Under the pieces are notes generated by a model that was not told where the DNA came from, did no database searches, and was given only the letters and a program-made list of their open reading frames with translations. Positions 19,749-55,374 of a stretch of 64,000 bases of DNA are shown here, piece by piece. Location: positions 17,436 through 81,435 of the forward strand of contig JAISUT010000017.1 of the NCBI GenBank assembly GCA_031271905.1. Direction: 5' to 3'. How positions within the stretch are numbered: position 1 is the stretch's first letter; each line of letters begins with the position of its first letter. Position numbers and translations under genes: made by a program. This DNA comes from Acidobacteriota bacterium. Its GTDB lineage: Bacteria > Acidobacteriota > UBA6911.

Positions 19749-19787
19749 CCCGCATCGGAAGAACCCGCGAAATAGAACAAATAAACG

Positions 19788-34278: not shown

Positions 34279-36876
34279 CTATCTCCGCAACAGCCCCTGG
34301 CTGATGGCGACGCGGATGGTCTCGGTGCGGTTGGCGGTGCCGAGCTTCCCGTAGACGCGCTTGACCGTGCTCTTGACGGTGTTGATCGACAGCTTCGCCT
34401 CCCCGGCTATCTCCTCCAGCGTGAAGCCCCGGAACAGCCACTCCAGCATCTCCACCTCCTTGCGCGACAGCGAGGCGTCTCCGTGGCGCACGCCGGCGGT
34501 GCGTCCGGCGGGGGCGGGGGCGGCGAACCGCTCCGCGACCTGGAAGAACTTCTTGGCGTATGCCGAGGAGAGGACGCGCACCTTCTCGAGGAACGCCTTG
34601 GGGATCGGCGCATCGTCCTTCGCGGCGGCGGTCGCCAGGGTGCGCATGTCCTTCCCCTGCTCCGCGAAAGGGAGGAGCAGGCCGCCCGGGGCGGCGAACT
34701 CCCATGCTTGGCGCAGCTTGGCGTAGGCTTTGGCGCGCTCCTGCGACTGGTACAGGCAGAGCGCCTCCAGCACTGCGATCTCCACCTTGCCGAAGATGAA
34801 TGCGCCCGCGCTCTGGCGCGCGTTCCCGAGGGAGGCGAGGGAGGCGGCGAACTTGCGCTCCCGCAGCAGCGCCTTCGCCCGCACCAGTTCGTCCAGGCCC
34901 ACGAGGTGCGAGCTGATCCCGCTGTTGCCCGCCTCGCTCCGGAGCCAGAACGCGACCTTCTCGACCGCGCCCAGGTGGGCGTGGAACCAGCCGAGAAAGA
35001 TGTCGTTGTAGATGAACCGGTTCTGATGCTCCTCGACGCCCAGCAGCTCGCGGTAGCGGGCGACGACCCCTTCCAGCGCGTCCGTCCGCCCCTGGTAGAT
35101 GGCGACCCGCAGGCGGTAGAAGAGCGCCTGGCTCTCGACGTCGTACTGGTTGTTGCGCCGCGCCTGGGGCACCGCCTGCAAGAGGCACCGCTCCGCCTCG
35201 TCCATGTCCAGCCTGAAGAACGCCGTCTCGCCCCGGCTCACCCAGTCCTGCCCCATCATGCACCCTGCCATGGCGGCGGCGACGTGGGGCAGCATGGCGG
35301 TCTCCTCTTCGATGAACCGTTCCAGGTCCTTCGGGGCGGGGGTTCCCACCCGGCAGGCGTAGGCGCCGATGCTGGCGTTGCGCATCGCCCCCTCCAGCAC
35401 CCTGCCGCACAGGTCGGAGTAATGCCGCCCCTTGATGAAATACTCCGCGAAGTCGTAGTCGCCGTTGAACAGGCAGAGCAGCTTGCGGATGAAGCCGATG
35501 GTGAAATACGCGCCCCAGAGGACGTAGTTGCGGAACTCGTCCTCCGGCGCCGCCTCGTATTTGCGGATGATGTCGGTCAACAGGGTCTCCGCCTCCCCGA
35601 CCTTGCCCAGCATCACCATCAGCCTGGTCAGGATGACGTAGGCGTTGGAGTGGGTGGCGTACACCTCGTCGGGCATCCGCCGCATGGCCTCGTACAGGAA
35701 CTTCGCCGTCTGGTTCGGCATCGACATGGGGAACGAGCTGCACAGCTTCATGACGGCGGCGTAGTCCCCGGCCTTGTCGTAATAGCTGATGGCGTCGTTC
35801 TTCTGCCCGTTGGCGAGGCTCCACCGGGCGGCCTGCATCCAGACGTCCTTCTTCTCCTCGGGCGTCAGCTCCTGTTGCAGGGTGACCAGGTAGTCCAAAA
35901 ACAGGTGGTGGATGTAGTAGATGTTGCTGTAGGTGTCCAGTTGGATGAAGGTCCCGATCTCGTCCAACTGGCGCAGGAGGCCGCCGCCGGTCTGGTCCAG
36001 GCCCGCCAGCAACTCCTTCGCCTTCATGTGCAGGAGGGACGCCTTGATCAGGAACTTGCGCAGCTCCATGCCGCTCTCGGCCAGCACCTCGCTCTCGATC
36101 AGCTTGAAGATGTTGGCGCGTATGGCGGGGATGACGCGCCCCTCCCGCTGCGGCACCTTCTTCAGGTAGATGCCCGCCAGGTGGAGGGCGAACGCCCAGC
36201 CCTCCGTGTCGCGGTACACGGCGTCCAGCGTCTCGGACGAGGCGTGGATGCCGAAGATCTCGAACAGCGCCTCCATCTCCTCGAAGCTGAACCGGAGCTG
36301 GTCGCCGGTGATCTGCGCCAAGGTGCCTTTGGAAAGGTGGCGCATCAGGTTCAGCGGCGGCTCCTTGCGGCTGATGAGGATGGAGGTGATGTTGGGGAAC
36401 GGTATGGAGAGGGAGCGGTTGAGGAACCACAGCACCGACTCGTTTTGGATGAGGTGGATGTCGTCGTAGACGAAGACGTAGCGGCGCCGGGGGTCGTTGC
36501 CCTCCACGGGGATGGACAGGTACCTCTCGAACTGCCGCTCCGTGCCGGGGAACCCCTGCTGGAGCAGTCTCTCGGCGGTTTGGGGGCTGAACGCGGAGAC
36601 GGAGCGGGCGAAGTGCTCCCAGAACCGGTCGGCGATGTTGTCGCGGGTGGAGAACTGCAACCAGGCGGCGTCCACGTCCTTGTCCTGGAGCCAGGAGTAG
36701 ACGGCGCGGCTCTTGCCGTACCCGGCGCCCGCGACCACCGTCACCAGCGGCGACTGCAACGCCTCGTCCAGGAGCGCGTCGATGCGCGGGCGATCCAGGT
36801 GGATGCGCCCCCCCGGAAGCGGCGGCATGCCGCCCCGGACGCCTGGTGGAGTGGTTCTTTGCCGTTTACGTGCCAT
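34279..36876 (-). CDS. MalT-like LuxR-family transcriptional regulator (NTPase, helical/TPR region and C-terminal LuxR HTH)
   Basis: The start is set at MARKRQ, giving 865 aa. It has an N-terminal P-loop ([10 protein letters not shown]), a long helical repeat region, and a C-terminal GerE/LuxR HTH ([44 protein letters not shown]). Confidence 0.75.
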
Positions 36877-37128
36877 CGCACTAACTATACAGAACTTCAC
36901 GATGACCGCAAGCCGCAATTTGCCTTGGCGCGCGGCGGCGTCGCCCCCCGCGCCGCCCCCCGGCGTCGCCGGGGCGGGGAGGGGGCGGGACGGCGGTTCC
37001 GCGTTCTATTCCCCTTGCCGCGCGCGATTTTCAGCTATAATGCTCGACATGAACTATCGGGGCGGGGAAGCCCCGCGTCCGGTGACTTCGCCGCATGGAA
37101 CGCCATGTGGGAAAAGGGAGGTGGCGCA

Positions 37129-39042
<1,914 letters not shown>

Positions 39043-39084: not shown

Positions 39085-40188
39085 CTACCGCAGGGAGGCG
39101 ACGGGGGCGGGCGCTTCGTCGGGCGCCCCGGGAGGTGCTTCGGGGATGGCGGGGATGGCGGCGTCCAAGGTGCTTGCCGGGCCTGCCGCCAATTCCGCGC
39201 CGTCCGACCGCCGCCATCCGCAGGCGGAGGGGGCGTGCACGACGGGGACGCATTCCGCCAGCTCCTCGGGTCGGAGGACGGCCTCGGCGTGCTTCTCGGG
39301 GTCGAAGCGCCCGGTGGTGACGTACATCGCCAGGCCGCTGGCGGCCGCCCAGGGGGAGATCGCGATTATCGGCGCGGCGTACTTCTTCGTCAGGATCAGC
39401 GTCTCGGTCACGCCCCGCACCGCGTTGCTGCGCTTGAGCTCCCCCGGGACTTGCGGGATGACGAAGGACGAGGAGCGCAACTCGGGGCGCCGCGCCCCGA
39501 ACTTGACCAGCGAGCGCGCCGCCTGCTTGGGCGTGGTGATGCCGAGGTCGGCGACGATGCTGCGCCGCACCGTCTTGGGGTAGTAGAAGTTGACGACGTC
39601 CTTGGCGAAGTCGGCGCAGTTGCGCAAGAGCAGGTTGAACCGCCTCTCGTTGGCCCGCCCGTTCAAATGCGCGATCAGCGCGTCGTCCGACGCCTCGCCG
39701 GTCTCGACCACGAACCCGTAGATCTTGCGGTCGTAGGAGGCGCCCACCAGTTGCGTCCAGTCCCCCGGGGGGGGGCCGCCGTCGGGGGCGTCGGGCGCGA
39801 GCTCCCGCAGATGCGCGCGGCGGTAGGCGTCCCGGAGCGCGTCCACGCCTTCGCGGTCGGCGGACTCGGGGACTTGCTCCGGCGCCTCGACCGCGTACAG
39901 GTAGGGGAGGAGGGGGATGGCGACCCAGTCGTACCCGGCGACGCGGTTGTAGCGGCTGATGACGACCCCCGCCTCGCCGTCCGCGCAACGGCGCAACCGT
40001 GTGGGGGACTCCGCGCACACCCGCGACAGGTAGACGGCGACGTGGCCGGTCGGGTTGAAGGCGCCGAACGTGCTGTGCGGCTGTTGCAGGAGCAGGGCGA
40101 TATCCGCGCGCGCCGGCGAGGCGAGCAACAGCGTCTGCGACAGCAACAGCCACCACCATTTCCCCACTCTCATGTCTCCACGCCCCAT
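39085..40188 (-). CDS. secreted hypothetical protein, possibly a permuted papain-fold (LRAT/NlpC-P60-like) domain
   Basis: It has a signal peptide (WWWLLLSQTLLLASPARA). The His-before-Cys order of the candidate catalytic motifs GHVAVYLSRVC and LLRNCADFAKDV resembles the HWAIY / NCEHF motifs of LRAT-like enzymes. The rest is unassigned. Confidence 0.4.
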   Translation of the reverse strand: MGRGDMRVGKWWWLLLSQTLLLASPARADIALLLQQPHSTFGAFNPTGHVAVYLSRVCAESPTRLRRCADGEAGVVISRYNRVAGYDWVAIPLLPYLYAVEAPEQVPESADREGVDALRDAYRRAHLRELAPDAPDGGPPPGDWTQLVGASYDRKIYGFVVETGEASDDALIAHLNGRANERRFNLLLRNCADFAKDVVNFYYPKTVRRSIVADLGITTPKQAARSLVKFGARRPELRSSSFVIPQVPGELKRSNAVRGVTETLILTKKYAAPIIAISPWAAASGLAMYVTTGRFDPEKHAEAVLRPEELAECVPVVHAPSACGWRRSDGAELAAGPASTLDAAIPAIPEAPPGAPDEAPAPVASLR

Positions 40189-40292: not shown

Positions 40293-40325
40293 ATAAAAAA
40301 AGGCCGCAGACCTTTCGACCTGCGG
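40293..40325 (-). terminator. Rho-independent terminator downstream of the AOR gene
   Basis: On the minus strand, the hairpin GGCCGCAG-N10-CTGCGGCC is followed by TTTTTTT (plus strand: aaaaaaaGGCCGCAGacctttcgacCTGCGGCC). Confidence 0.7.
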
Positions 40326-40398
40326 CCTTTCGCCACCAGAGGCGCCCGTAGGGGCGGGGGCGGCGCCGTCGAAGCGAGGCGCCGCCCCTTTCCCGTCC

Positions 40399-42495
40399 TT
40401 AGCCCAGCTTGCCCTTGGACTGGAGCACGTCGGCGACGTTCTTCATGCCCATCTTTTCGAGCGTCGCGCGGGTGGGATAGCTGTTGTCGGGGTTCCAGCC
40501 CTCGAACTTGTAGAACCGCTCCTTGAAGTCCTCGACCTTGGCGCGGTCCAGTTGGCGACCCCTGCCGTTGGCGTACGTCCACTTGCCATCGACGACCATC
40601 GGTTGTTCGCTGCCGTTGGTCGGCTTGTCGTAGACGTAGTCGGGGAAGACCTCCATCTTCTTGTCGCGCCCCTGGATGTTCCAGATGGCGCGGTCGAGCG
40701 TGTAGATCTTGTGCCCGATCTCCATCAGCTCGGCGAAGGTCTTGTCCTGGCCGGTGATCGCGTTCCAGAACTTGGGCTCGGCGTGCGGCGTCGCGCCCCG
40801 GTAGTCGTTCGTGTTGTTGGTGATGCACTGCGGCCAGCGCCAGCCGCAGAAGCCCATCCCCATCCAGAACTTCTCGTAGTGCTTGACCCAGGCGACCTGC
40901 TTGACCTTGGAGTCGGAGTAGATGCCGGTCGGGCCGTCGCCGTAATCCACCAGGTAGCGGTCGTCGTTGTAGGGCACCATCGCCTCGGCGTACTTCTGGG
41001 ACGCCTCCTCGGCGCTCATGTACGGGTTGCCCGAGGTGATCATCCAGTGCAGCGGGTAGTTCGACATCTGGTGCAACATCAGGTCGCGCTCGCCGAACAG
41101 GGAGCCGTAGCCCCACTCCGCCTGGGTGGGCGTGTCATAGTGCTCCTGAGTCCCCCAGTAGGTCAGGCGCAGCGTGCCGCCGTGGACGTCCTGCTGGTAG
41201 CGTCCCAGCTTCTCCGCCATGCGGGCGGGCCCTTCCGCCGCGAAGTCCCCGAAAGCGTCGTCGCGCATGGCGATCTTCCGGAAGACCGTCTCGTAGTACG
41301 CCATCGTCCCGGCCGGGGGCAGGTCGATGTCGATCTGCTTGCCGGGGCCGATGATCCCCTCGCGCTGAAGCGCGCCGATGTAGCCGTTGACGGCCATGAA
41401 CGGCCAGTGGCCGATGCCGTAGCGCTGCATCAGGTCGTTGCCCTGGCGGGTCAGCTTGGAGCTGAGCGCCTGGGGCATCGCCTTCGGGTCGGGCTTGCGC
41501 CCGAAGCCGCCGAACATGCCGCCGCCGCCGATGTTGGCGACCATCGTGCCTGCGCAGACCGACTCGTTGCTGTCGGCCGTGGCCAGGCGCATGCGGCAGC
41601 CGCGCGGGCACGAGGCGCATGCCGCGGCGCGCGCCGGGACCGGGTTGGTGCCGCCGTTGCTGACGTTGCCGCCGCTGGGGGAGCCGTTGATCAGGCTGTA
41701 GCCGCTCTCGAACTTCTCCGCCTCGTGCGGGTTGTCAACGTCCCACTGGAACTGGCGGAACCAGATGCGGGCGTCCATCAGCGCCTGCGGGTCGGCGACC
41801 GGCACGCCGCCGTTGCCGATGACGCTGACCGCCTTGAGGTTCTTGGAGCCGAACACGCCGCCGAAGCCGCACATGGCGGCCTGGGAGCCCGGGCCGTGCA
41901 GCAGCGCCCCGAAGCGGCACTTGCGCTCGCCCGCCGGGCCGCAGGTGACCACCGCGGGGATCTGCGTGGTGAAGCAGTTCTGCGCCAGCTCCGCCCATTC
42001 GCCGTACTTGAGGCTGGGGACGACGCGCCGGGAGATCTCCTGCTGCGCGTCCCAGGTGTCCATGCCCCAGACGCCGTTGGTGGCGTCCTCGATCTTGACC
42101 TGGTCGTTGACGACGTTGATGTAGACCGGCTGGTCGGACGCCCCTTCGATCACGATGCCGTCCCAGCCGGCGAACTTCAACTGCGCCGTGAAGCGGCCGC
42201 CGAAGTTGCTGTGGCCGAACCATTCGACCGGGTACAGCATGGGCGAGAGCCCCTGCACCTCGCAACGTCCCGAGCCCGGCATGAAGGTGCCCGCGAAGGG
42301 CGACGCCATCATGACGATCAGGTTGCGCGGGTCGAACGCCTCGAACGGGAGTTGGGCGCCCACGAGGTCGAAGAAGACCGCGGAACCCATGCCGTGACCG
42401 CCGCCGAAATCCATGTATTTTTCGGTGGGCAGATTGCTGACCTCTTTCGTGGTCAGGTTGACTCTGAGAATTTTACCTGTGTATCCACCTGGCAT
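40399..42495 (-). CDS. aldehyde:ferredoxin oxidoreductase family tungsto/molybdopterin enzyme (YdhV-like)
   Basis: 698 aa. The N-terminus MPGGYTGKILRVNLTTKEV is AOR-typical, and a [4Fe-4S]- and pterin-binding core is present. Its length and its pairing with a Tat-signal Fe-S protein match E. coli YdhV/YdhX. Confidence 0.8.
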   Translation of the reverse strand: MPGGYTGKILRVNLTTKEVSNLPTEKYMDFGGGHGMGSAVFFDLVGAQLPFEAFDPRNLIVMMASPFAGTFMPGSGRCEVQGLSPMLYPVEWFGHSNFGGRFTAQLKFAGWDGIVIEGASDQPVYINVVNDQVKIEDATNGVWGMDTWDAQQEISRRVVPSLKYGEWAELAQNCFTTQIPAVVTCGPAGERKCRFGALLHGPGSQAAMCGFGGVFGSKNLKAVSVIGNGGVPVADPQALMDARIWFRQFQWDVDNPHEAEKFESGYSLINGSPSGGNVSNGGTNPVPARAAACASCPRGCRMRLATADSNESVCAGTMVANIGGGGMFGGFGRKPDPKAMPQALSSKLTRQGNDLMQRYGIGHWPFMAVNGYIGALQREGIIGPGKQIDIDLPPAGTMAYYETVFRKIAMRDDAFGDFAAEGPARMAEKLGRYQQDVHGGTLRLTYWGTQEHYDTPTQAEWGYGSLFGERDLMLHQMSNYPLHWMITSGNPYMSAEEASQKYAEAMVPYNDDRYLVDYGDGPTGIYSDSKVKQVAWVKHYEKFWMGMGFCGWRWPQCITNNTNDYRGATPHAEPKFWNAITGQDKTFAELMEIGHKIYTLDRAIWNIQGRDKKMEVFPDYVYDKPTNGSEQPMVVDGKWTYANGRGRQLDRAKVEDFKERFYKFEGWNPDNSYPTRATLEKMGMKNVADVLQSKGKLG

Positions 42496-42513
42496 AGTAG
42501 TCTCTCCTCCTCC

Positions 42514-43386
42514 CTATTGTTTCGGTTGCGCGCCGGGTTGTGGTTTCGCTCCAGGACCGCCGGGACCTGGCTTCGCTCCGGGGCCTTCCGCCCCCGGCTT
42601 CGCTCCGGGTTTCGACGCGCCGCCCGGGCCGCCGCCCATCATCTTGGGGGCGGGGCGCGGTATGACGGTGCGGCTGTCGTCCACGAGCCCGAGCCTCAGC
42701 CAGTGCTCGTTGCGCAGGTTCACCTGGTAGCCGTTGGTCTCTTCCTGGTTCGGCGCCTCGGCGACGAACTTGAGGGCGTTGACCGGGCAGTTGGTCACGC
42801 AGGCCTGCTTGCCGCCGGGGCCGCCCTTCTCGTTCCAATACGGGGTGTCGATGCAGAGGTCGCATTTGGAGGATTTTTTGTTGACGTGATCCCACACCGT
42901 GCGGTGCGGTTGCTGCGGGCACATCTTGAGACAGGTCTTGCAGCCGATGCACTTCTTCTGGTCGATCACGCGGACGTTGCCGTTGTCGGCGTCCACATGG
43001 GCCGCGCCCACGGGGCAGCTCCGGACGCAGACCGGCTCCACGCACTGGCGGCACGGGGCGATGGTGAGGTCGTGGGGGAACTTGCCGAACGAGTCCTGGA
43101 TGATCTGGATGCGCGAGAGCGACAGGTTCTGCTGGCCGTAGTGGGTCAGCGAACAGCTCAACATGCAGGTGGTGCAGCCGATGCATTTGCGGCTGTCGTA
43201 GACCAGGTACCCCTTGGATTTGGGGATGGGGCCGTCGACGGCAGCCGTGGCGGTGGCGGGCGACGTCGCCGCCGTGATGATGGCGGGCGCGGCGACGGCC
43301 GCTCCGCCAGTGACTAGAAAATCACGCCTTGAATATCTCTTTTTGGCGGCAGTTTCGTCGTTTTCAGCTTTCTTGCCTCCAAGCAT
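42514..43386 (-). CDS. Tat-exported 4Fe-4S ferredoxin-type subunit (YdhX/HybA-like) with a C-terminal Gly/Pro/Lys-rich repetitive tail
   Basis: The start is set at MLGGKK with a GGAG ribosome-binding site. It has a twin-arginine motif (SRRDFLVTGGAAVAAP), four Cys clusters (CIGCTTCMLSC, CRQCVEPVCVRSCP, CIGCKTCLKMCP, CDLC...CVTNCP), and the tail GGGPGGASKPGAKPGAEGPGAKPGPGGPGAKPQPGAQPKQ. Confidence 0.75.
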   Translation of the reverse strand: MLGGKKAENDETAAKKRYSRRDFLVTGGAAVAAPAIITAATSPATATAAVDGPIPKSKGYLVYDSRKCIGCTTCMLSCSLTHYGQQNLSLSRIQIIQDSFGKFPHDLTIAPCRQCVEPVCVRSCPVGAAHVDADNGNVRVIDQKKCIGCKTCLKMCPQQPHRTVWDHVNKKSSKCDLCIDTPYWNEKGGPGGKQACVTNCPVNALKFVAEAPNQEETNGYQVNLRNEHWLRLGLVDDSRTVIPRPAPKMMGGGPGGASKPGAKPGAEGPGAKPGPGGPGAKPQPGAQPKQ

Positions 43387-43447
43387 AGCGTTACTCCTTC
43401 GCTGAATATTGATAATCGTCCGGGTCAGGACCCGCAAACAACCTTTA

Positions 43448-43566
43448 GGGAACCTCTAAAAACCCCGGACGCTGCGTCGCGCCTTGGTCGAAAATGCCCG
43501 TTCGCCTCGGCAAACTCCGCTTTCCGACCTGCGGCGGCGCCTTGTCCGCGAGGTTTTCAGATGCCC
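43448..43566. repeat. long-form copy of the interspersed palindromic element
   Basis: gggaacctctaaaaaccccggacgctgcgtcgcgccttggtcgaaaatgcccgttcgcctcggcaaactccgctttccgacctgcggcggcgccttgtccgcgaggttttcagatgcc. Confidence 0.8.
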
Positions 43567-43849
43567 TTTTCATGCGTCCCGCCTCGTGAAGCTCCGCCAT
43601 CCGCCATGTGAAGCTCTGTCGGGGTGACACTTCGTCGGGCATAGCTAATTACGTCCGCCGGCGGCGTCCCGTTACTTGCGGCGACCGTCGGCGCACAGAC
43701 CCACTTTGGAACAAACGGGGGAGGATTGTCAACAACTAATGCGCCGAGGTAAAGTAAGGGGCGGCGCGAAGGAGGTTGGTTGCGCGCCGGTTGCCGCCCG
43801 GGGCGCCGGGCGGCGCGCGGGTGGATGTCGGACGGGGAGGGGCGAGGCT

Positions 43850-44668
43850 ATGGACGTGAAGAAGGTGGTGCGCGAGAAGTACGGCATGGCGGCGTTGCGC
43901 GTGGTCGGGAGGGGCGCGGGGGGCGCCTGTTGCGAGGGGCTCTCCTGCTGCTCCGCCGCCGACCCGATCACGGGCGACCTGTACGGCGAGCTGGAGAAGG
44001 CGTCGCTCCCCGACGCCGCCGTGCTGGCGTCGTTCGGCTGCGGCAACCCGACGGCGCTGGCGGAGCTCAAGGAGGGGGAGGTCGTGCTCGACCTCGGCAG
44101 CGGCGGCGGCATCGACGTGCTCCTGTCCGCCAGACGGGTCGGGCCCGGGGGCAAGGCGTACGGCATCGACATGACGGACGAGATGCTGGCGTTGGCGCGG
44201 GAGAACCAGGCGAAGGCGGGGGTCGCCAACGTCGAGTTCCTGAAGGGGGAGATCGAGGACATCCCCCTGCCGGACGCCTCCGTGGACGTCGTCATCTCCA
44301 ACTGCGTCATCAACCTCTCGGGCGACAAGGACAAGGTCATCGGCGAGGCGTTCCGCGTCCTGAAGCCGGGGGGGCGCTTCGCCGTGTCGGACATCGTGAC
44401 GCTGGGGCGCGTGCCGGAGGATTTGCGCAAGGGCGCCCTGGCGTGGGCGGGGTGCGTGGCGGGGGCGTTGGAGGATGCGGAGTACCGCGACAAGCTGGAG
44501 GCGGCGGGGTTCGCCTGCGTCAGCGTCGAGCCGACGCGCGTCTACCGCGCCGAGGACATCCTGCGGGTCTTTGCCGGCGACGGGGGGGGCGGCCCGGCGC
44601 TCCGCGCGGCGGTCGAAGGCAAATTCGCCAGCGCCTTCATCCGCGCCACGAAGCCCGCCGCGCCATAG
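43850..44668 (+). CDS. arsM: arsenite S-adenosylmethionine methyltransferase (ArsM-like)
   Basis: The start is ATG 43850, giving 272 aa. [18 protein letters not shown]...[24 protein letters not shown] matches the ArsM N-terminal Cys motif. A class I SAM-methyltransferase core ([12 protein letters not shown]) and a conserved downstream Cys (WAGCVAGA) are present. Confidence 0.7.
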
Positions 44669-44952: not shown

Positions 44953-45402
44953 CTAGGACTCCACCCGCGCCTCGTACTGGGAGAAGGCCTGCCAGATGTC
45001 CTCCTCCGGCGCCAAGACCCTGCCTTCCCAGCGCAGGAGCATGGTGCGGATGTTGTTGATCTGGTCGGTGTTCTTGACCTCGCTCTCCAGGAGGTAGGCG
45101 ATCATTTTCTCGGGGTCGTTGTCGAAGAAGCGCGCGATCACGTCGGAGACCTGGTTCTTCGTCGCCTGTCGTTTGGAGAGGAGCGGCTTGTAGACGTAGG
45201 CGCGGCCCACGCGCTCGTGGACCAATGCGCCCTTTTCCTCCAGAATCCCCATCAGCGTGAGGATCGTCGTATACGCCGTCGGCTTGATCTGGCAGATGGA
45301 GGCGCAGACTTCCTTCACCGTCGCCGACCCGAGGTTCCAGACCACTTTCATAATTTGAAGCTCTTGCCGCGTGAGAATAATCGACTTCAAATCCTTCTTC
45401 AT
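44953..45402 (-). CDS. BlaI/MecI/CopY-family transcriptional repressor
   Basis: 149 aa. It has a winged-helix N-terminus (LTRQELQIMKVVWNLGSATVKEVCASI...YTTILTLMGILEEKGALVHERVGRAYVYKP) and a C-terminal dimerisation helix. Confidence 0.7.
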   Translation of the reverse strand: MKKDLKSIILTRQELQIMKVVWNLGSATVKEVCASICQIKPTAYTTILTLMGILEEKGALVHERVGRAYVYKPLLSKRQATKNQVSDVIARFFDNDPEKMIAYLLESEVKNTDQINNIRTMLLRWEGRVLAPEEDIWQAFSQYEARVES

Positions 45403-45566: not shown

Positions 45567-46667
45567 CTACTTGCGCAGGATGCTCTCCAGCCGCCGCCCC
45601 AGCAGCCTGCCTGGGCCGTCGTCGGACATGACCGCGACCCCTTCCGGGGCGCGCGCCCCCAGGCGCAACTCGGCGGCCCGCTTGATCTGCGGCTGCTCGA
45701 AGACGCCGTCCGCGCCGCCGATGCGGGCGCCGGCGTATTGCAGCACCGAGAACGCCACGGCGTCCAGGGCCACGCGGTCCCGCGACGCGGCGATGACGCC
45801 CGGGCGCGCGACCTCCCCTTTTTCCGGACCCCCGGCGACGAACACCTCCGTGGCGTCCAGAAACACGACGCCCGGCGAGTACACCTGGTTGGCTTCAGCG
45901 ATCATTTGCCCCTGGGCCGGAGAAGCGTGTAGGTCTTGCATGAAGTTCCGGCCATGGCTGGGGGCGGCATCAACACCGCGCCCTTGAATATCTTGCCCCG
46001 TCGCGTCCCTTGCCCCGACCCGCTTGGCGATAAGGCCGATGGAGTTCTTCAGGCTTGCGCTGAACCCCCCGCCGAACCGATGCGTCCGTGGCGAACACAA
46101 CTGAACAACACGACAATCTTGGATCAGAAAATCGGGAAATGCAATACCCCCCGGCCAATGAGACCCCGGAAGTTCCGCGAAACGCCACCGGGAGGCGTCC
46201 AGTTCGTCCAGCGGCAGGAAGGCGACCGACAGCGATTCCAGCACCTCCAGCGCGCCGAGCCGTCCCATCACCTCGCGCGTGCGCCCCATGCCGCTCCGCT
46301 CCACGAGGGTGATGCCTTCCGCCCCCCGCGCGCGCAACAGGCCGACCACGGCGCGGAGCGCATCCGGGTGCGTGGTCGCGGGGGGCGGCGCGGGGCTGCC
46401 GTAGGAGGCTTTGAGGTAGACGTCCCCGCCGGAGAAATCCAGCGCCCCCGCGCCGTCCCCCTCCAGCAACGCCAATGCGCGGGCGAACCCCGTCCCGCGC
46501 TCCGCGCCGCCGATGACGGCGACACGGACGCCAGCACCCTCCGGCGGCGCGCCCGCACCCCCTCCCGCAGGCGGGATGTCGGGGGCGTCCGCCTCCGGGG
46601 CGTCGCCCAGCAATGCCAAGCCGCCCAGGGACGACAGGCGGCCGAACGCCCTCCTCGTCAAACGCAT
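45567..46667 (-). CDS. DUF362-domain protein with a twin-arginine signal
   Basis: It has a Tat motif (MRLTRRAFGRLSSLGGLALLG) and a conserved DUF362 core (YLKASYGS ... SLKNSIGL ... AVAFSVLQYAG). Confidence 0.55.
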   Translation of the reverse strand: MRLTRRAFGRLSSLGGLALLGDAPEADAPDIPPAGGGAGAPPEGAGVRVAVIGGAERGTGFARALALLEGDGAGALDFSGGDVYLKASYGSPAPPPATTHPDALRAVVGLLRARGAEGITLVERSGMGRTREVMGRLGALEVLESLSVAFLPLDELDASRWRFAELPGSHWPGGIAFPDFLIQDCRVVQLCSPRTHRFGGGFSASLKNSIGLIAKRVGARDATGQDIQGRGVDAAPSHGRNFMQDLHASPAQGQMIAEANQVYSPGVVFLDATEVFVAGGPEKGEVARPGVIAASRDRVALDAVAFSVLQYAGARIGGADGVFEQPQIKRAAELRLGARAPEGVAVMSDDGPGRLLGRRLESILRK

Positions 46668-46952: not shown

Positions 46953-48401
46953 ATGAATGAATGTCTGCTTTTCTGTCTGGTGGCGGTCCCCCTGTTCGGC
47001 TCGCTGCTGCTGCCCCTGCTGGGCAAGGCCGGCGACCAGGCGCGGAACATCTTCGCGCTGGTCTTGATGCTCTGCTCCCTCGGGATATCCTGCTTCCTGC
47101 TTCCCGTCATCGCGGGCGACCAGGTCTTGACGGTCAGCGTCGGCGGCGTCACCCTCTTTTACGCGGACAAGCTCGCCATCTTCATGGCGCTGTGCTCCCA
47201 GACGCTCGGCACCATCATCATCCTCTATTCGTTCGGCTACATCGCCCATTACGAGCACCGCAACGAATACTACTTCATGGTGGTGTTGTTCCTGGCCGCC
47301 ATGATGGGGCTGATCTTCTCGTCGAACCTGCTCTGGATATACTTCTTCTGGGAGATCACCGCCATCTGCTGCTGGAGGCTGATCGGCTTCTTCCGCGAGC
47401 GGGAGTACGTCCTGCGCGCCGACAAGGCGTTCTTCATCACCATCTTCGGCGCCCTGATGATGCTGGGCGGCTTTCTGATGGTCTACGGCCAGACCGGCAC
47501 CTTCGACCTGCTCGAGATCAAGGCGTACCTGGGGCGGCATCCGGGCGAGGTCATCGACAACACCGCGATATTGTTCATCCTGTTCGGCATCCTCTCCAAG
47601 TCCGCCACGCTGCCGCTGCACACCTGGCTGCCTGACGCCGGCGTCGCCCCTTCGCCCGTCACCGCGTTGCTGCATGCGGCGGTGCTGGTGAAGATCGGCG
47701 TCTACGTCTTCGCCCGCCTGTTCGTGGCGACCTTCACCGTGGACGGGATATGGTGGGAGGTCGTGCCCTGGATAGCCGCCGCGAGCGCCTTGGTCAGCGC
47801 CTGCGCCGCGCTGGTGGAGAACGACATCAAGCGCATCGTCGCCTACTCGACCGTCAGCCAGCTCGCATTCATCCTGCTGGGGCTCGCAGTCCATAACGAG
47901 GTCAGCGTCCTGGGCGGCCTGCTCTACATCCTGATGCACGGCATCGCCAAGGCGGGGCTGTTCCTTTGCGCCGGGGTGGTGGAGCACGAGACGCACAACA
48001 AAGACATCCGCAGGATGGGCGGGCTGGTCAAGACCATGCCGGTCACGGCGGTCTCCTTCGGCCTGTGCGCCTTCTCGGTCATGGGGCTGCCCCCGTTCGG
48101 CGGCTTCTTCAGCAAGTACATGGTGGTCAACGGCGCGCTCGAGTCGGGGCAGGTCGCCATCGGGCTGACCTTCGTGGCGGGCGCGTTCCTGACCCTCGCC
48201 TACCTCCTGCGGGTCTATGTGCGCGTGTTCTTCGGCGCGAGCCGGGCTGCGGACGACGGGCATGGGGCGCCTAAGGAAGGCTCGCCCATCATGGTGTTCA
48301 GCGTGGCGTTGCTCGCCGCGCTCTCCCTGCTCAGCGGCGTGGTGATCGGCCCGTCGTTCCAGTTCGCCCAAGAGGCGGTGCGGCAGATGATGGGTCGGTA
48401 A
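46953..48401 (+). CDS. group-4 hydrogenase membrane subunit, Mrp/NuoN-MnhD-like antiporter module (1 of 3)
   Basis: 482 aa with ~14 transmembrane helices. It carries conserved antiporter-module motifs (WLPDAGVAPSPVTALLHAAVLVKIGVY, AYSTVSQLAFILLGLA). Confidence 0.8.
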   Translation: MNECLLFCLVAVPLFGSLLLPLLGKAGDQARNIFALVLMLCSLGISCFLLPVIAGDQVLTVSVGGVTLFYADKLAIFMALCSQTLGTIIILYSFGYIAHYEHRNEYYFMVVLFLAAMMGLIFSSNLLWIYFFWEITAICCWRLIGFFREREYVLRADKAFFITIFGALMMLGGFLMVYGQTGTFDLLEIKAYLGRHPGEVIDNTAILFILFGILSKSATLPLHTWLPDAGVAPSPVTALLHAAVLVKIGVYVFARLFVATFTVDGIWWEVVPWIAAASALVSACAALVENDIKRIVAYSTVSQLAFILLGLAVHNEVSVLGGLLYILMHGIAKAGLFLCAGVVEHETHNKDIRRMGGLVKTMPVTAVSFGLCAFSVMGLPPFGGFFSKYMVVNGALESGQVAIGLTFVAGAFLTLAYLLRVYVRVFFGASRAADDGHGAPKEGSPIMVFSVALLAALSLLSGVVIGPSFQFAQEAVRQMMGR

Positions 48402-48525
48402 GAACAGACGGCGGGGGCGGGCGCGCCCGTCCCGCCTTGTGACAAGGGGGTGGGCTCCGAGGACTTCGCGGATGAGGCGCGACGCAGCGTCCGGGGTTCG
48501 GGGGCTTCCCTGAAAAGGCAAAACA

Positions 48526-50367
48526 ATGAGCACGGAAAATCTGATGTTACTCGCCATTTTCCTTCCCATCGTCTTGGCGGTCGTCCCGTTGGCGCTGGTC
48601 AAGAAAAATGCCCTCGCCGCCGGAGCCGTCGCGATCGCAGCCAGCTTCGCGAACCTCGTCGTGGTCTGCCTGGCCTACGGCAAGGATGCCGCCCTCACCC
48701 TGCCCTGGGCGGGCTGGTTCTTCGAGTTCACGTTGCGCAACTACCAGTTCAGCTCCTTCATCCTGGCTGCCGCCGCGCTCTTCGGGGCGTTGCTCTCGGT
48801 CTACAACACGGTCTTCCTCAAGGACAAGGCCTACGGATGGCTCTTCCACGCCTACTTCCTGCTGACCCTGGGCTTCGTCAACGGCGCCATCTTGGCCGAC
48901 AACCTGCTGCTGCTCCTGTTTTTCTGGGAGGGGCTGCTGGGTCTGATGTTCGGCATGATCTACCTCGGCCACCGCGACGCCTACCGCACCGCGACCAAGG
49001 CGGTCATCATCGCCGGGGTCACCGACCTGTGCATGATGTTCGGCATCGGGCTCGCCGTCCACCTCGCCGAGACCGCGACCATGTCGCAGATGAAGGTGCC
49101 GATGGAAGGCTTGGGGGGCTTGGCCTTCGTGCTCCTGGTGATCGGGGCGATCTCCAAGGCGGGCTCCATGCCGTTTCACACTTGGATCCCGGACGCCGCG
49201 ACCGACGCGCCGATGCCGTTCCTGCCCTTCGTCCCGGCGGCGCTGGAGAAGTTGCTGGGCATCTACCTCCTCGCCCGCGTCACGCTCGACTTCTTCAAGC
49301 TGGACGGCGGGCACTGGGGCTCGATGCTGCTGATGGTCGTCGGCGCGCTCACCATCAACTTGGCGGTGGCGATGGCGCTCATCCAGAAAGACTACAAGCG
49401 CCTCCTGTCCTACCACGCCATCAGCCAGGTCGGCTACATGATCCTGGGCATCGGCACCTGCACCCCGGTCGGTGTCGTCGGGGGCCTGTTCCACATGCTC
49501 AACCACACGATCTACAAGTGCTGCCTGTTCCTGACCAGCGGCTCGGTGGAGCGGCAGGCGGGGACGACCGACCTGCGGAAGATCGGCGGCCTGGGGCGCA
49601 AGATGCCGGTCACCTTCGTCCTGTTCATCATCGCGGCGGCCGCCATCGCCGGCTTCCCGGGCACGAACGGCTTCTTTTCCAAGGAGCTGGTCTATGACGG
49701 CGCCTTGGAGCGGCACTGGATATTCTACGCGGCGGCGGTGCTGGGCTCGTTCCTGACGGCGGCGTCCTTCCTGAAGCTGGGGCACGCCGCATACCTTGAC
49801 AAGGGGCGCGGCGACGCGAGCAAGGTCAAGGAGGCGCCGGCGGCGATGCTCGTCCCCGGAATCGTCCTGGCGGCGCTCTGCCTCGCCTTCGGCGCAGGCA
49901 ACGCCTTCCCGCTCCACAATTTCATCCAGCCGGTGCTGGGCGATGCGTTGCACGGGCATGACTACTCGGGCTTCCACTTCAAGCTGGTGCTGGTCGGCGG
50001 CTCCGTCGCGGCGCTGCTGCTGGCCTTCGCCAACCACTATTTCGGCGCGAAGAGCAAGGGGAGCGGCCTTGCGGCGGTGGACCACATCCACTACGCGCCG
50101 GGCCTGCACCAGATCTACGACGCGGCGGAGAAGCGCTTCTTCGACCCCTATGATTGGGCGAGGAACGTGGGCAAGGCGGTCGCCTACGTCGGCTTCGGCA
50201 TCGACCGCGCCATCGACTTCTTCTTCAACAAGGTCGTCGTCTTCGTCGCCGGCGGAATCTCCGGCACCATCCGTGCGCTGCATAACGGGAGCCACGCCAC
50301 ATACCTGGCATGGACTTTGGCCGGCCTTGTGATCGTAATCGTCGCCTGCATGGCGGGTCGCCTGTAG
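48526..50367 (+). CDS. group-4 hydrogenase membrane subunit, NuoL/MnhA-like antiporter module (2 of 3)
   Basis: 613 aa. It has the motifs FFWEGLLGLMFGMIYLG, HTWIPDAATDAPMPFLPFVPAAL and SYHAISQVGYMILGIG, plus the C-terminal extension typical of NuoL-type subunits. Confidence 0.8.
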   Translation: MSTENLMLLAIFLPIVLAVVPLALVKKNALAAGAVAIAASFANLVVVCLAYGKDAALTLPWAGWFFEFTLRNYQFSSFILAAAALFGALLSVYNTVFLKDKAYGWLFHAYFLLTLGFVNGAILADNLLLLLFFWEGLLGLMFGMIYLGHRDAYRTATKAVIIAGVTDLCMMFGIGLAVHLAETATMSQMKVPMEGLGGLAFVLLVIGAISKAGSMPFHTWIPDAATDAPMPFLPFVPAALEKLLGIYLLARVTLDFFKLDGGHWGSMLLMVVGALTINLAVAMALIQKDYKRLLSYHAISQVGYMILGIGTCTPVGVVGGLFHMLNHTIYKCCLFLTSGSVERQAGTTDLRKIGGLGRKMPVTFVLFIIAAAAIAGFPGTNGFFSKELVYDGALERHWIFYAAAVLGSFLTAASFLKLGHAAYLDKGRGDASKVKEAPAAMLVPGIVLAALCLAFGAGNAFPLHNFIQPVLGDALHGHDYSGFHFKLVLVGGSVAALLLAFANHYFGAKSKGSGLAAVDHIHYAPGLHQIYDAAEKRFFDPYDWARNVGKAVAYVGFGIDRAIDFFFNKVVVFVAGGISGTIRALHNGSHATYLAWTLAGLVIVIVACMAGRL

Positions 50368-50382
50368 CGGAGGAGTGTTAAC

Positions 50383-51828
50383 GTGATAACTCTTTACATA
50401 GCGCTGCCCCTGGCAGTCGTTCTGCTCCTGAACCTGTCGCCCCGGAGGACCGCCAACGCGCTCAGCCTCTGGTGCGGCTTGGTGCTGACGGTCTTTGCGG
50501 GGGCGTACACCCTCGCCATGCCGCACGTCCCCGGGCTCGCGGACGCCTTCGACCCCGCCAACCGGGTGTTGCAGTGGAAGATCGAGGCGGGCAACCTCGC
50601 CGGCGTGATGTTCCTCTCCATCGCCTTGGTGGTCTTTTCCGCCTTCTGGGTGGGGCGCTACCTGATCGCCGACTCCAACCGGCGGTTCATCTTCAACAAC
50701 CTCCTGTTGCTGTGCATGACGGGGATGAACGGCATCGTGCTGTCCAACGACCTTTTCACCCTGTACGTGTTCTTGGAGGTCGTCGCCGCCTCATCCTTCA
50801 TCCTGATCGCGCTGGAGCGGACGAACGCCGGCCTGGAGGGCGCGTTCAAGTACGTCCTGCTCTCGGCGGTCGCCACGGTGCTGGTGCTCTCGTCGATGGC
50901 GCTGATCTTCGTGCTGGTGGGGAGCCTGGACTACGGCACGGTCAAGGCGGTCTTGACGTCCGGTCAGCTCGACGCGGCGACCTCGCGCTTCGTCACTTTC
51001 GCCATCGGCCTGTTCGTCGTCGGCCTGTTCATCAAGGGCGGCATGGTGCCGTTCCACGGATGGCTGCCGGACGCCTACTCCTCCGCCCCCACGGCTTCGT
51101 CCGTCCTGCTGGGCGGCATCGTGACCAAGGCGGCGGGGGTGTTCACGCTCATCCAGCTCGCGCAGAACGTATTCGGCTGGGACAAGCCCTCGCCGGTCTT
51201 GCTCGCCGTCGGCACGCTCTCCATCGCGGTCGGCGCCTTCGCGGCGTTGGGGCAGAGGAACTTCAAGCGGATGCTGGCGTATTCGAGCATCAGCCAGATC
51301 GGCTACATCATCATCGGCCTGGGCGCCGCCAACGAGGTCGCCGTCGTCGGCGCGATCCTGCACCTGTTCAACCACTCGACTTTCAAGACCCTCCTGTTCG
51401 TCAACTCCGCCGCCGTGGAGAAACAGGCGGGCACCGTGGACATGGACAAGCTGGGCGGCCTCGCGAACAAGATGCCGGTGACCGGCTTCACCTCGGTGCT
51501 GGCGATGCTCTCGACCGCCGGCGTGCCGCCGTTGTCCGGCTTCTGGAGCAAGCTTTTGATCGTGCTCGGCGTCTGGCTGTCGGGGGCGCACGCGGTGGCG
51601 GTGACGGCGATATTGCTGAGCGTGGTCACGCTGGCGTACTTCCTCTCGATGCAGCGCCGGGTGTTCTTCGGCAGGCTGGCGCCGGGGCTTGAAGGCGTCA
51701 AGGAGGCGGGCGGCTGGTTGCTGGTGCCCGAGATCGTCCTGGCGGTCATCACGCTGGGGCTTGGTTTGACGATGCCGTGGTTCTTTAACACATTTCTCGT
51801 TCCCCTGCGGAGCTTGTGGAGCTTGTAA
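50383..51828 (+). CDS. group-4 hydrogenase membrane subunit, NuoM/MnhD-like antiporter module (3 of 3)
   Basis: 481 aa. It has the motifs HGWLPDAYSSAPTASSVLLGGIVTKAAGVF and AYSSISQIGYIIIGLGA. Confidence 0.8.
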   Translation: MITLYIALPLAVVLLLNLSPRRTANALSLWCGLVLTVFAGAYTLAMPHVPGLADAFDPANRVLQWKIEAGNLAGVMFLSIALVVFSAFWVGRYLIADSNRRFIFNNLLLLCMTGMNGIVLSNDLFTLYVFLEVVAASSFILIALERTNAGLEGAFKYVLLSAVATVLVLSSMALIFVLVGSLDYGTVKAVLTSGQLDAATSRFVTFAIGLFVVGLFIKGGMVPFHGWLPDAYSSAPTASSVLLGGIVTKAAGVFTLIQLAQNVFGWDKPSPVLLAVGTLSIAVGAFAALGQRNFKRMLAYSSISQIGYIIIGLGAANEVAVVGAILHLFNHSTFKTLLFVNSAAVEKQAGTVDMDKLGGLANKMPVTGFTSVLAMLSTAGVPPLSGFWSKLLIVLGVWLSGAHAVAVTAILLSVVTLAYFLSMQRRVFFGRLAPGLEGVKEAGGWLLVPEIVLAVITLGLGLTMPWFFNTFLVPLRSLWSL

Positions 51829-52358
51829 TTATGCTTTCGCTAGGCACAATCCTTCTTATCCTGCTCGTGCTCATGGTGCTCTCGGCGCTTTGGGCGGTGA
51901 TGGCGACGGATCTCTTGCGCTCCACCATCGCGCTGGCATTGACGAGCGTCTTTCTCGCCATCGCCATCTATATGATGGGCGCGCCCTTGGCGGCGGTCTT
52001 CGAGCTCTCGGTCTGCGCCGGCCTGATCACGGTGGTCTTCATCAGCGCCATCAGCATGATCAAGCCCGAGGGGAACACCCGCAAGGAAGACCTCGCCCGC
52101 AAGAGGCGGAAACGCTTGAAGAAGTACATCCCGCTGCCGATCCTGCTGGCGGTCGCGGGCGTCCTGCTGTGGCTGAACCGGGTCGACCTGCCGTTCACGC
52201 CCGACGCGGACGTGTTCCCGCTCACCCTGTCTGAGATCATGTGGGACGTCAGGCGCGTGGACATCGCCGGCCAGGCGGTCATGATCCTGGTCGGGGTCTT
52301 CGGCATCGTCGTCCTGTTCAAGGAATTCGTGAGGCGCGGCAAAGGAGGGGAGGAGTAA
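51816..52358 (+). CDS. MrpB/MbhD-E-like small membrane subunit of the hydrogenase antiporter module
   Basis: 180 aa with 4-5 transmembrane helices. The N-terminal half resembles DUF4040/MnhB and the C-terminal half resembles MbhE. The start may be the Met at 51831. Confidence 0.6.
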   Translation: MELVIMLSLGTILLILLVLMVLSALWAVMATDLLRSTIALALTSVFLAIAIYMMGAPLAAVFELSVCAGLITVVFISAISMIKPEGNTRKEDLARKRRKRLKKYIPLPILLAVAGVLLWLNRVDLPFTPDADVFPLTLSEIMWDVRRVDIAGQAVMILVGVFGIVVLFKEFVRRGKGGEE

Positions 52359-52666
52359 TGGAAAACCTGTTCTGGTTCCTGACGTCTTTCGTGGCGCTCC
52401 TGTTCATCATAGGGCTCTATGCGCTGCTGGCGACGCGCAACCTGTTGCGCATCCTGATCGGGATGGAAATACTCACCAAGGGCGTGACCTTGCTGCTCAT
52501 CGCCGCTGGCTTCCTGGCCGGGCGGCAGAACGCCATGCAACCCATCGTCATCACCATGATCGTGGTCGAGGTGGTGATCATCGCGGTCGCGGCGGGCATC
52601 GTCATCGCCTCGTACCGCAACAACAAGACCATCAGCGTGCGCGCGTTGCGCAACCTGAAAGGGTAG
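52358..52666 (+). CDS. NuoK/MrpC/MbhG-like membrane subunit
   Basis: The start is ATG 52358 after GGAGGGGAGGAG. It is 102 aa with three transmembrane helices, and it has the NuoK-type conserved Glu in a transmembrane helix (GMEILTKG). Confidence 0.75.
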   Translation: MENLFWFLTSFVALLFIIGLYALLATRNLLRILIGMEILTKGVTLLLIAAGFLAGRQNAMQPIVITMIVVEVVIIAVAAGIVIASYRNNKTISVRALRNLKG

Positions 52667-52675
52667 GGGGGGGAC

Positions 52676-53032
52676 ATGGACAAGATCATCGAGGTGAAAG
52701 ACGTATACCTTTTGTTGCCGCCCATCGCGTTCCTGATCGTCTTCGTCTTCGTCTGGTTGCAGTACGTGGGCTTGAAGATGTTCTCGGCGGGCGAGAAGTG
52801 GAAGGACGAGGAGGGCAAGCGCGAGTCCTACGCCTGCGGCCATGACGTGAAGGACTCCCGCGTGGCGCCGGACTACAGCCAGTTCTTCTCCTTCGCCTTC
52901 TTCTTCACGATCATGCACGTCGTGGCGCTGATAGTGACCACGTTCCCTTCGGGTGACGTCGAGGCGCTCGCCTTGGGCGTCGGCTACCTGGTCTCGGCGG
53001 CGGTGGGTCTTTTCATCCTGTTTAAGAGGTAA
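52676..53032 (+). CDS. small membrane subunit (MbhI/NuoA-like)
   Basis: 118 aa with three transmembrane helices. A YACGHD motif in the central loop resembles the NuoA Y(E/A)CG motif. Its position immediately upstream of the NuoB-like gene matches MbhI. Confidence 0.5.
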   Translation: MDKIIEVKDVYLLLPPIAFLIVFVFVWLQYVGLKMFSAGEKWKDEEGKRESYACGHDVKDSRVAPDYSQFFSFAFFFTIMHVVALIVTTFPSGDVEALALGVGYLVSAAVGLFILFKR

Positions 53033-53038
53033 CGCATC

Positions 53039-53533
53039 ATGGGTCTTATCAAATCGCTTGTGACCTGGTCGCGCGTCAAGTCGCCGTGGGTCATCCACTT
53101 CAACACCGGCGCGTGCAACGCCTGCGACATCGAGATCGTGGCGTCGATCACCCCCAAGTTCGACTTGGAGCGTTTCGGGGTCCAGTTGAAGGGGACGCCG
53201 CGCCACGCGGACGTGTTGCTCTGCTCCGGCCCGGTGACCCGGCAGATCGAGTCCCGGCTCAAGCGCGTCTACGAGCAGATGTCCAACCCCAAGTTCGTGG
53301 TAGCCATCGGGACTTGCGCCTGCTCCGGCGGCGTGTTCAACGGGTGCTACAATGTCAAGGGCGGCATCGACACGGTGATCCCGGTCTCGGCATACATCCC
53401 CGGATGCCCGGTGCGTCCGGAGGCGATCATCGACGGCGTGGTCAAGCTGCTCGGCAGCCTGAAGAACCCCGCCGCCGCGCCGAAGCTGCCCATCACCATA
53501 GACCCGGCAGGGGTGTTGGAGAAAGGAGCGTAG
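53039..53533 (+). CDS. [NiFe]-hydrogenase group-4 small subunit (NuoB/EchC/MbhJ-like)
   Basis: 164 aa with the four Cys of the proximal [4Fe-4S] cluster (GACNACDIE, CSGPV, GTCACSGG, GCPVRP). Confidence 0.85.
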   Translation: MGLIKSLVTWSRVKSPWVIHFNTGACNACDIEIVASITPKFDLERFGVQLKGTPRHADVLLCSGPVTRQIESRLKRVYEQMSNPKFVVAIGTCACSGGVFNGCYNVKGGIDTVIPVSAYIPGCPVRPEAIIDGVVKLLGSLKNPAAAPKLPITIDPAGVLEKGA

Positions 53534-53538
53534 GGTCA

Positions 53539-54015: not shown

Positions 54016-54035
54016 GAAGTGGCAAGGAGGTGTGT

Positions 54036-55271: not shown

Positions 55272-55292
55272 GGGAACCCATAACCTATTTAA

Positions 55293-55348: not shown

Positions 55349-55374
55349 GAAGTCATAGACAAACAGGGTAAGAA

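Follow-up and report, generated by a model that had tools for sequence, protein, structure and literature searches.

Tungsten-containing oxidoreductases (WORs) whose small iron–sulfur subunit, WorS, carries a signal for twin-arginine translocation (Tat) have been described as Class V, which is confined to clade 41, accounts for more than 10% of the family and includes YdhV (the WorL, or catalytic, subunit) and YdhY (the WorS subunit) of Escherichia coli (Putumbaka et al., 2026; PMC13328260). All enzymes of this class possess one or more additional subunits, Acidobacteriota are not among the phyla listed, and no activity is known for the class; the recombinant catalytic subunit CsWOR41L had a preference for W and turned over none of 46 aldehydes (PMC13328260). 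A 2025 review identified Cys336 of YdhV and Cys322 of BamB (class II benzoyl-CoA reductase) as protein ligands to the Mo/W ion, and reported that this ligand cysteine is conserved in the YdhV and BamB clades and absent from other members of the aldehyde oxidoreductase (AOR)/WOR superfamily, that the second-shell residues of AOR are lost along with its appearance, and that the Cys-ligand enzymes do different chemistry from AOR. Here we describe a gene pair, worS-worL, in a 64,000-nucleotide stretch (hereafter the window) of contig JAISUT010000017.1 from an Acidobacteriota bacterium (assembly GCA_031271905.1). An original prediction made from the sequence had read this pair as a candidate YdhX/YdhV-like periplasmic aldehyde oxidoreductase exported by hitchhiking on a Tat signal. 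The present analysis indicates that worS-worL is likely a self-contained bicistronic operon for an extracytoplasmic, heterodimeric AOR/WOR-superfamily oxidoreductase that uses hitchhiking Tat export, with a WorL that falls in a clan of its own.

The window is about 66% GC, and genuine genes were told from spurious open reading frames (ORFs) by codon-position GC. The operon consists of the following elements:

42514..43386, minus strand: worS, encoding a 290-aa ferredoxin of the NrfC/DmsB/WorS type with four [4Fe-4S] motifs, a Tat signal at its N-terminus and a C-terminal tail that is disordered.
43243..43386, minus strand: predicted twin-arginine signal peptide of WorS (residues 1–48), with the RR codons at 43324-43329 and a predicted A-T-A cleavage site between A48 and A49.
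42517..42672, minus strand: low-complexity C-terminal tail of WorS, rich in P, G, A and K, about 52 residues long and without a transmembrane helix.
42496..42513, minus strand: worS-worL spacer of 18 bp, containing the worL Shine-Dalgarno sequence GGAGGAGGAG.
40399..42495, minus strand: worL, encoding a 698-aa AOR/WOR-superfamily catalytic subunit without a signal peptide, with Cys314 (codon 41554-41556) as the predicted W/Mo ligand.
About 40295..40330, minus strand: intrinsic terminator closing the bicistronic operon, identified from sequence and RNA folding.

The GC content at third codon positions is 0.94 in worL and 0.83 in worS in this 66% GC genome, showing that both are real genes. The sequence GAAGGAG precedes the worS ATG at 43386. 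The terminator, which was overlooked by a consensus scan and confirmed by RNA folding (region z-score -3.9), comprises a near-perfect GC-rich stem of about 14 bp, a GAAA loop and seven U. The gene 5′ of worS is a divergent ArsM-like methyltransferase gene and the terminator lies directly 3′ of worL, so the operon is strictly bicistronic, and no same-strand neighbour lies beside it. In these respects the original prediction was borne out: the 698-aa AOR-family protein has no signal of its own (Pfam AFOR_N begins at residue 7), the gap from the worS stop codon to the worL ATG is 18 bp with the Shine-Dalgarno sequence inside it, the upstream protein has 16 cysteines in four cluster motifs and a Tat signal whose quoted residues 19–48, SRRDFLVTGGAAVAAPAIITAATSPATATA, match exactly, the Rho-independent terminator that it had placed at 40293-40325 is a strong hairpin followed by U7, and no membrane cytochrome gene is found among the neighbours of the operon. 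No second worSL copy is present within the window. No riboswitch, for molybdenum cofactor (Moco) or other ligands, was found in the 463-bp region 5′ of worS when Rfam was searched at gathering thresholds over the whole window and at E up to 1 over 43300-43900. An additional, very GC-rich hairpin (40357-40388, minus strand; GGGGCGGCGCC...GGCGCCGCCCC) lies between the worL stop codon and the terminator.

The N-terminus of WorS reads MLGGKKAENDETAAKKRYSRRDFLVTGGAAVAAPAIITAATSPATATA, with predicted cleavage directly ahead of AVDG. It is laid out as a lysine-rich n-region, an S-R-R-x-F-L motif (SRRDFLV), one Asp after the RR pair (residues 20-21), about 26 uncharged residues, A-T-A and then A49. 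By the AxA rule, the signal would be cleaved after A-T-A, between A48 and A49. The 16 cysteines of WorS are matched by Pfam Fer4_11 and related models, and the best NCBIfam match was NrfC (102 bits), with no equivalog level attained. A search of PDB sequences showed that WorS is homologous to the small subunits in solved WorL–WorS complexes, namely 9mqx_E, AorA (8c0z_C) and WOR5-S (6x6u_B). The 52-residue tail contains 13 P, 14 G, 7 A and 6 K and ends in ...GGGPGGASKPGAKPGAEGPGAKPGPGGPGAKPQPGAQPKQ; homologues from Acidobacteriota and Desulfobacterota have shorter K/P-rich tails, which most other homologues lack.

WorL matched Pfam AFOR_N (166.5 bits, from residue 7) and AFOR_C (94.6 bits), both above the cut-off, and the start of AFOR_N leaves no room for a signal peptide. 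The AF2 model of WorL (pLDDT 88.5, pTM 0.92) was compared with solved structures by Foldseek, which retrieved AOR, FOR, BamB and WOR5 at E values of 1e-35 to 1e-28, with template-modelling (TM) scores of 0.65-0.72 and 19-23% identity; the solved WORs matched about equally, BamB being marginally best with a query-normalised TM of 0.72. As modelled, WorL has the three-domain AOR/WOR fold. The [4Fe-4S] ligands C293, C296, C300 and C550 (CxxCxxxC...C) are invariant or nearly so among its relatives, and the first three align with the cluster cysteines of PfAOR, FOR and BamB. Cys314, which is nearly invariant in the clan, aligns with BamB Cys322 both in the clan profile and in independent MAFFT alignments, and YdhV residue 336 shares its column in the latter. 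Both methods also aligned the PfAOR motif P-E311-Y-E313 with C314-A-G316 of WorL, which puts Cys314 in the place of E311 and Gly316 in the place of E313; the Gly316 position is variable within the clan, and a cysteine equivalent to Cys314 is present in all 112 sequences nearest to WorL. PfAOR His448 gave no confident alignment in WorL. Because Cys314 stands in the BamB Cys322/YdhV Cys336 column, WorL belongs to the Cys-ligand supergroup and not to AOR sensu stricto, with Cys314 as its putative metal ligand.

This metal site bears on whether the enzyme is a genuine periplasmic aldehyde oxidoreductase, in which WorL would turn aldehydes into acids in the periplasm, the reaction that canonical AORs carry out in the cytoplasm. 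The matches to Pfam AFOR_N/AFOR_C and the fold similarity to AOR and FOR would suit such an activity, as would the source annotations, which call homologues "aldehyde:ferredoxin oxidoreductase". However, WorL has a cysteine at the BamB C322/YdhV C336 ligand position and a glycine at that of AOR Glu313, the 2025 review assigns different chemistry to Cys-ligand enzymes lacking the AOR second shell, and the Class V enzyme CsWOR41L, a distant relative, was inactive on all 46 aldehydes (PMC13328260). Since a Cys-ligated site of the BamB/YdhV type without the second-shell Glu of AOR makes classical aldehyde oxidation unlikely, WorL is probably not a classical aldehyde oxidoreductase as judged from these alignments, and the label given by the original prediction is doubtful. 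We regard aldehyde oxidation in the periplasm as improbable.

The pairing of the two genes was examined in a scan of one genome per species, which gave 80 WorL-related loci, with a WorS-like gene adjoining WorL in 68 distinct loci. A WorS carrying RRxF[LVIMFA] stands directly 5′ of WorL in 63 of these 68, the exceptions being mostly truncated or mis-started ORFs. The result showed that the pairing of a signal-less AOR/WOR subunit with a Tat-signal Fe-S protein, noted in the original prediction for this locus, is conserved among related loci, which come from Acidobacteriota, Desulfobacterota, Coriobacteriia, Bacillota, Campylobacterota, Planctomycetota, Gemmatimonadota and one haloarchaeon. The related WorL genes align with the query starting at residue 1-4. 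The WorS signal ends in a lipobox-like Cys in some lineages and has the look of a signal anchor in Gram-positive lineages. The window itself encodes Tat components:

17445-19313, plus strand: DsbD, preceding tatA and tatC.
19425-19748, plus strand: tatA (Pfam TatA_B_E, 69 bits).
19788-20585, plus strand: tatC (Pfam TatC, 233 bits).

These three consecutive genes (17445-20585, plus strand) lie about 20 kb from worS-worL and are not part of the operon. Given the conserved pairing and RR motif, the homology of WorS to subunits found in complexes and the presence of tatA and tatC in the window, Tat hitchhiking is the best-supported reading, and WorL would be co-exported by means of the WorS signal. 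The hitchhiking proposed in the original prediction thus stands as the best reading of the pairing, the TatA/TatC genes and the WorL-binding homologues of WorS, with co-export itself remaining a deduction from them. In two related loci (L021, 866-1996; L023, 8825-9937), a 370-aa Tat-signal double-cupin protein without Fe-S motifs replaces WorS directly 5′ of WorL. The WorL proteins of this subclade are 55-56% identical to that of the window and come from Desulfobacteraceae and Deltaproteobacteria metagenome-assembled genomes (MAGs); the double-cupin protein may be an alternative hitchhiking partner.

The same data weigh on a cytoplasmic location, in which the RR motif would not be a working Tat signal, or WorS would be exported alone, and WorL would use another ferredoxin. 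A Pfam TAT_signal match below the cut-off, the lack of a signal on WorL and an older genome survey in which lone YdhV homologues of Eggerthellaceae had a predicted cytoplasmic location are in keeping with this. Nevertheless, RRxF is kept across phyla in 63 of the 68 partners, directly 5′ of WorL, several relatives have lipobox-type or signal-anchor variants together with an adjacent membrane cytochrome b, and WorS of the window has an AxA site as well as an h-region that is long and uncharged. A cytoplasmic enzyme is therefore quite unlikely, and export of WorL by hitchhiking is preferred.

The relationship of WorL to YdhV was then considered. Among 50%-identity cluster representatives, about 30 full-length clusters form a discrete family with 35-60% identity to WorL (roughly 300-900 bits), after which the scores fall to about 200 bits; the closest homologues are 73-88% identical, several of them from acidobacterial MAGs. 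WorL aligns end to end with E. coli YdhV at 25% identity. It scored 247.2 bits on the NCBIfam YdhV equivalog model NF007354, against a cut-off of 868 bits, and ranked 136th of 256, after many other WORs, when YdhV was the query. In a neighbour-joining (NJ) tree of 112 full-length sequences, the WorL clan (44 members) was recovered in 200 of 200 bootstraps and joined with the YdhV group in none of the 200. Members of the clan include proteins of Gordonibacter, Raoultibacter, Halodesulfurarchaeum, Gemmatimonadota and Dehalococcoidales. In an NJ tree of the N-terminal region with three canonical AORs as the outgroup, the clan was recovered in 176 of 200 bootstraps, with BamB and YdhV branching outside it; for this tree about 420 N-terminal residues of PfAOR, CaAOR, PfFOR and BamB were taken from HMMER alignments, with lengths as expected. 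These are distance trees, not maximum-likelihood trees, in which the deep branching order is unreliable, and the groupings that appear robust in them are the monophyly of the clan and the exclusion of YdhV. WorL was thus placed outside the YdhV clade, a result that the original prediction had itself named as refuting its YdhV-like reading.

In several acidobacterial and desulfobacterotal genomes, worL of the clan is present as two or three diverged paralogues (37-69% identity to WorL), which suggests substrate diversification. The sets found in single genomes are:

JAFGTD01: L010, L020 and L059.
OY761556.1: L022, L056 and L079.
A third genome: L018, L023 and L066.
A fourth genome: L062, L063 and L078.
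A fifth genome: L006 and L007.

In addition, the proteins P0067 and P0106 are encoded on one 6.5-Mb contig.

Most acidobacterial and desulfobacterotal loci, including that of the window, consist of worS-worL alone. About 17 clan loci have a longer form, in which worS and worL are preceded by the gene for a cytochrome b561 (Pfam Ni_hydr_CYTB, weakly YdhU-like) and followed by that for a small protein without a family. This form occurs in Coriobacteriia (including cultured Gordonibacter and Raoultibacter), Bacillota, Actinomycetes, Campylobacterota and Desulfobulbus, at the following loci:

L049, 8325-13853: cytochrome-b form.
L026, L027, L029, L033, L040, L052, L057, L065 and others: cytochrome-b form.

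The order cytochrome b561-worS-worL in these relatives shows that the WorSL module can be wired to the membrane. The small protein is encoded 3′ of worL in about 20 loci and measures about 115-140 aa where its start is clear (137 aa in the example locus); it belongs to no Pfam family, and a hidden Markov model search matched it to no Ydh protein, including YdhW. The cytochrome-b form often continues with a gene for a B12-binding radical-SAM protein (8 loci) or, on the same strand in 3 loci, for a cysteine desulfurase-type class-V aminotransferase, and the radical-SAM protein and the aminotransferase could be maturation factors, acting for example in cofactor sulfuration. No CxxCH (c-type cytochrome) neighbour was found in any of the examined loci. 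A search of the genome for ydhU, ydhW and ydhT homologues had been suggested with the original prediction; as run on the examined loci, it gave no YdhW or YdhT match in any of them, and a weakly YdhU-like cytochrome b in other subclades only. Outside the clan, the locus of a Cys-type WOR (P0167; L089, 2531-9300) has one cytochrome b gene and, after it, two worS-worL pairs in tandem, each with a Tat-signal WorS, indicating that the Tat-exported architecture is wider than the clan.

Taken together, the data favour a model in which WorL would fold in the cytoplasm around a bis-metallopterin (W or Mo) and one [4Fe-4S] cluster, with Cys314 ligating the cofactor metal and C293, C296, C300 and C550 ligating the cluster. 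WorS would fold around four [4Fe-4S] clusters and bind WorL as in solved WOR complexes. The twin-arginine signal of WorS would then take the folded complex through TatAC, WorL hitchhiking as catalytic subunits do in [NiFe]-hydrogenases, and cleavage after A-T-A would free a soluble periplasmic WorSL. The cluster chain of WorS would move electrons, in one direction or the other, between the metal site and a partner encoded outside the operon, which in the relatives from Coriobacteriia, Bacillota and Campylobacterota would be the cytochrome b561 encoded directly 5′.

Several points weigh against this model. The Pfam TAT_signal match of WorS is 20.6 bits (E 3.9e-4), slightly below the gathering cut-off of 22.7 bits, and the assignment of Cys314 as a metal ligand is alignment-based. 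Neither the operon nor its neighbours in the window include a CxxCH, NrfD-like or cytochrome b gene, and none of these neighbours encodes a polytopic protein, so that the electron partner is not encoded nearby. In the literature, no experiment on any member of the WorL clan was found. YdhV and CsWOR41L (from Cetobacterium somerae), the only Class V enzymes examined biochemically, are without known activity, and CsWOR41S failed to co-purify with CsWOR41L (PMC13328260).

The genes around the operon and further along the window are as follows:

34279-36918, minus strand: MalT-like LuxR regulator.
37129-39042, plus strand: GlgB, masked by longer spurious ORFs and recovered by codon-position GC.
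39085-40188, minus strand: secreted hypothetical protein of 367 aa, with no detectable family, convergent with glgB.
43850-44668, plus strand: ArsM-like arsenite methyltransferase (347 bits on NCBIfam PRK11873, for which the cut-off is 263 bits), divergent from worS across 463 bp.
44953-45402, minus strand: BlaI/CopY-type repressor, with no BlaR-like partner.
45567-46667, minus strand: DUF362 protein with an RR-containing N-terminus, MRLTRRAFGRLSSLGGLALLG, that resembles another Tat signal.
46953-57480, plus strand: complex-I-like cluster of eleven genes, resembling a membrane-bound group-4 [NiFe]-hydrogenase.

An ORF close to the operon (37054-38973, minus strand) was rejected as spurious, since by codon-position GC this stretch instead holds glgB, on the plus strand. 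The true start of the ArsM-like gene is at 43850; the ORF list begins it too early, with a TTG at 43676. The gene for the 367-aa secreted protein is not kept beside worSL elsewhere. A DUF362 gene is also present near the worSL pairs of L089. The hydrogenase-like cluster encodes three antiporter-like subunits, NuoJ/K-like proteins, an unknown protein of 118 aa, a NuoB-like protein, a fused NuoCD/NiFe large subunit, NuoH, a NuoI-like protein with 2x[4Fe-4S] and a protease of the HycI type. A check for tungstate or molybdate transporters, also suggested with the original prediction and run within the window, found none, and the window holds no Moco biosynthesis gene. A ProRS is also encoded in the window and has 100% identity to that of an Acidobacteriota MAG at NCBI. 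An arsenic-related periplasmic oxidoreductase, co-regulated with the divergent ArsM-like gene and acting on inorganic or methylated arsenic, is very unlikely: the methyltransferase gene does diverge from worS, and does so too in the two closest readable contexts, L008 (the only one with an ArsR-family gene) and L002-L005, but it is confined to these three related loci, no ArsM/ArsR homologue lies within 10 kb of roughly 80 others, including ones with 60-76% identical WorL, and L002 and L008 also share NifS/NifU synteny, which is in keeping with shared descent more than with functional coupling, so the association was judged to be lineage synteny.

Under the hitchhiking model, WorSL is probably a minimal, probably soluble, Tat-exported variant in a well-separated clan of Class V-like (YdhV/BamB-type) WORs, differing from the described Class V in having no third subunit, in its phylum and in its separate deep branch. 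The idea of a hitchhiking Tat-WOR is already in the literature as Class V, and the original prediction's remark on how unusual a periplasmic AOR would be is no longer current, the WORs that have a Tat-signal WorS having been reported in 2026 to account for over 10% of the family (PMC13328260). A broader proposal, which we put forward tentatively and hold to be possible but doubtful, is that the clan is a distinct, widespread family of extracytoplasmic, non-aldehyde-oxidising enzymes, soluble or cytochrome-b-anchored, with a Cys-ligated W/Mo-bis-metallopterin; it would be the AOR-superfamily counterpart of the periplasmic respiratory enzymes that belong to the DMSO-reductase family, and in anaerobic Acidobacteriota and Desulfobacterota a single genome would have several paralogues, each perhaps with a substrate of its own. 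If this is true, the bare two-subunit form is the simplest system for discovering that chemistry. Tat-exported WORs are a large part of the W/Mo AOR superfamily and are widely found among anaerobes of gut and sediment, and no member has an assigned reaction. If it can be expressed, the two-gene worSL is simpler than the six-gene ydh operon of E. coli for work on hitchhiking, metal and substrate. The alignment of the Cys ligand also cautions against the annotation "aldehyde ferredoxin oxidoreductase" in acidobacterial metabolic reconstructions.

Compared with Class V, worSL shares a WorL and a four-cluster Tat-signal WorS, a predicted periplasmic orientation and a metal that may be W or Mo. Unlike in Class V, the operon of the window has no further subunit, being bounded by the terminator 3′ of worL and the divergent gene 5′ of worS, and it comes from a phylum that is not listed. 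With respect to clade 41, WorL shares the Cys-ligand supergroup with YdhV, but its clan is a separate one. Gordonibacter is among the organisms listed for Class V, and its clan member with a cytochrome b fits the description of Coriobacteria given for Class V (PMC13328260).

The ydh genes of E. coli run in the order ydhY-V-W-X-U-T, so that ydhV adjoins ydhY and not ydhX as the original prediction had it. WorS is about equally similar to YdhY (30% identity) and YdhX (28%); YdhX carries a canonical RR, and YdhY reads TRLEF there. The two systems are alike in a WorL of about 700 aa that aligns end to end with YdhV, an equivalent of Cys336, an Fe-S protein gene directly 5′ and one Fe-S partner with an RR signal. 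They differ in that a single WorS combines the gene position of YdhY with an RR signal of the YdhX type, and in that the catalytic subunits fall in separate NJ clans.

WorL resembles BamB in the Cys322-equivalent ligand, the [4Fe-4S] motif and the best query-normalised TM score, whereas BamB is cytoplasmic and part of the roughly 1-MDa BamB-I complex. The Zn and proton-relay site of BamB (Glu251/His255/Glu257/His260) is absent from WorL, in which the aligned positions are Gly, Ser or gaps, and no bam-like genes lie near worSL in the window. With AOR sensu stricto and WOR5, represented by AorAB(C) of A. aromaticum, WOR5-L/S of P. furiosus and the electron-bifurcating WOR 9MQX, worSL shares the principle of a WorL–WorS heterodimer; those enzymes reside in the cytoplasm and retain Glu313, and no protein residue ligates their W, whereas worSL has a Tat signal, a Cys ligand and a Gly at that position. 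In Tat hitchhikers such as the [NiFe]-hydrogenases HyaAB and HybOC, only the small Fe-S subunit bears a signal and the catalytic subunit has none. The catalytic family of WorL is unrelated to theirs and WorS is without a C-terminal membrane anchor, but worSL has the same arrangement, with the signal on WorS only and none on WorL.

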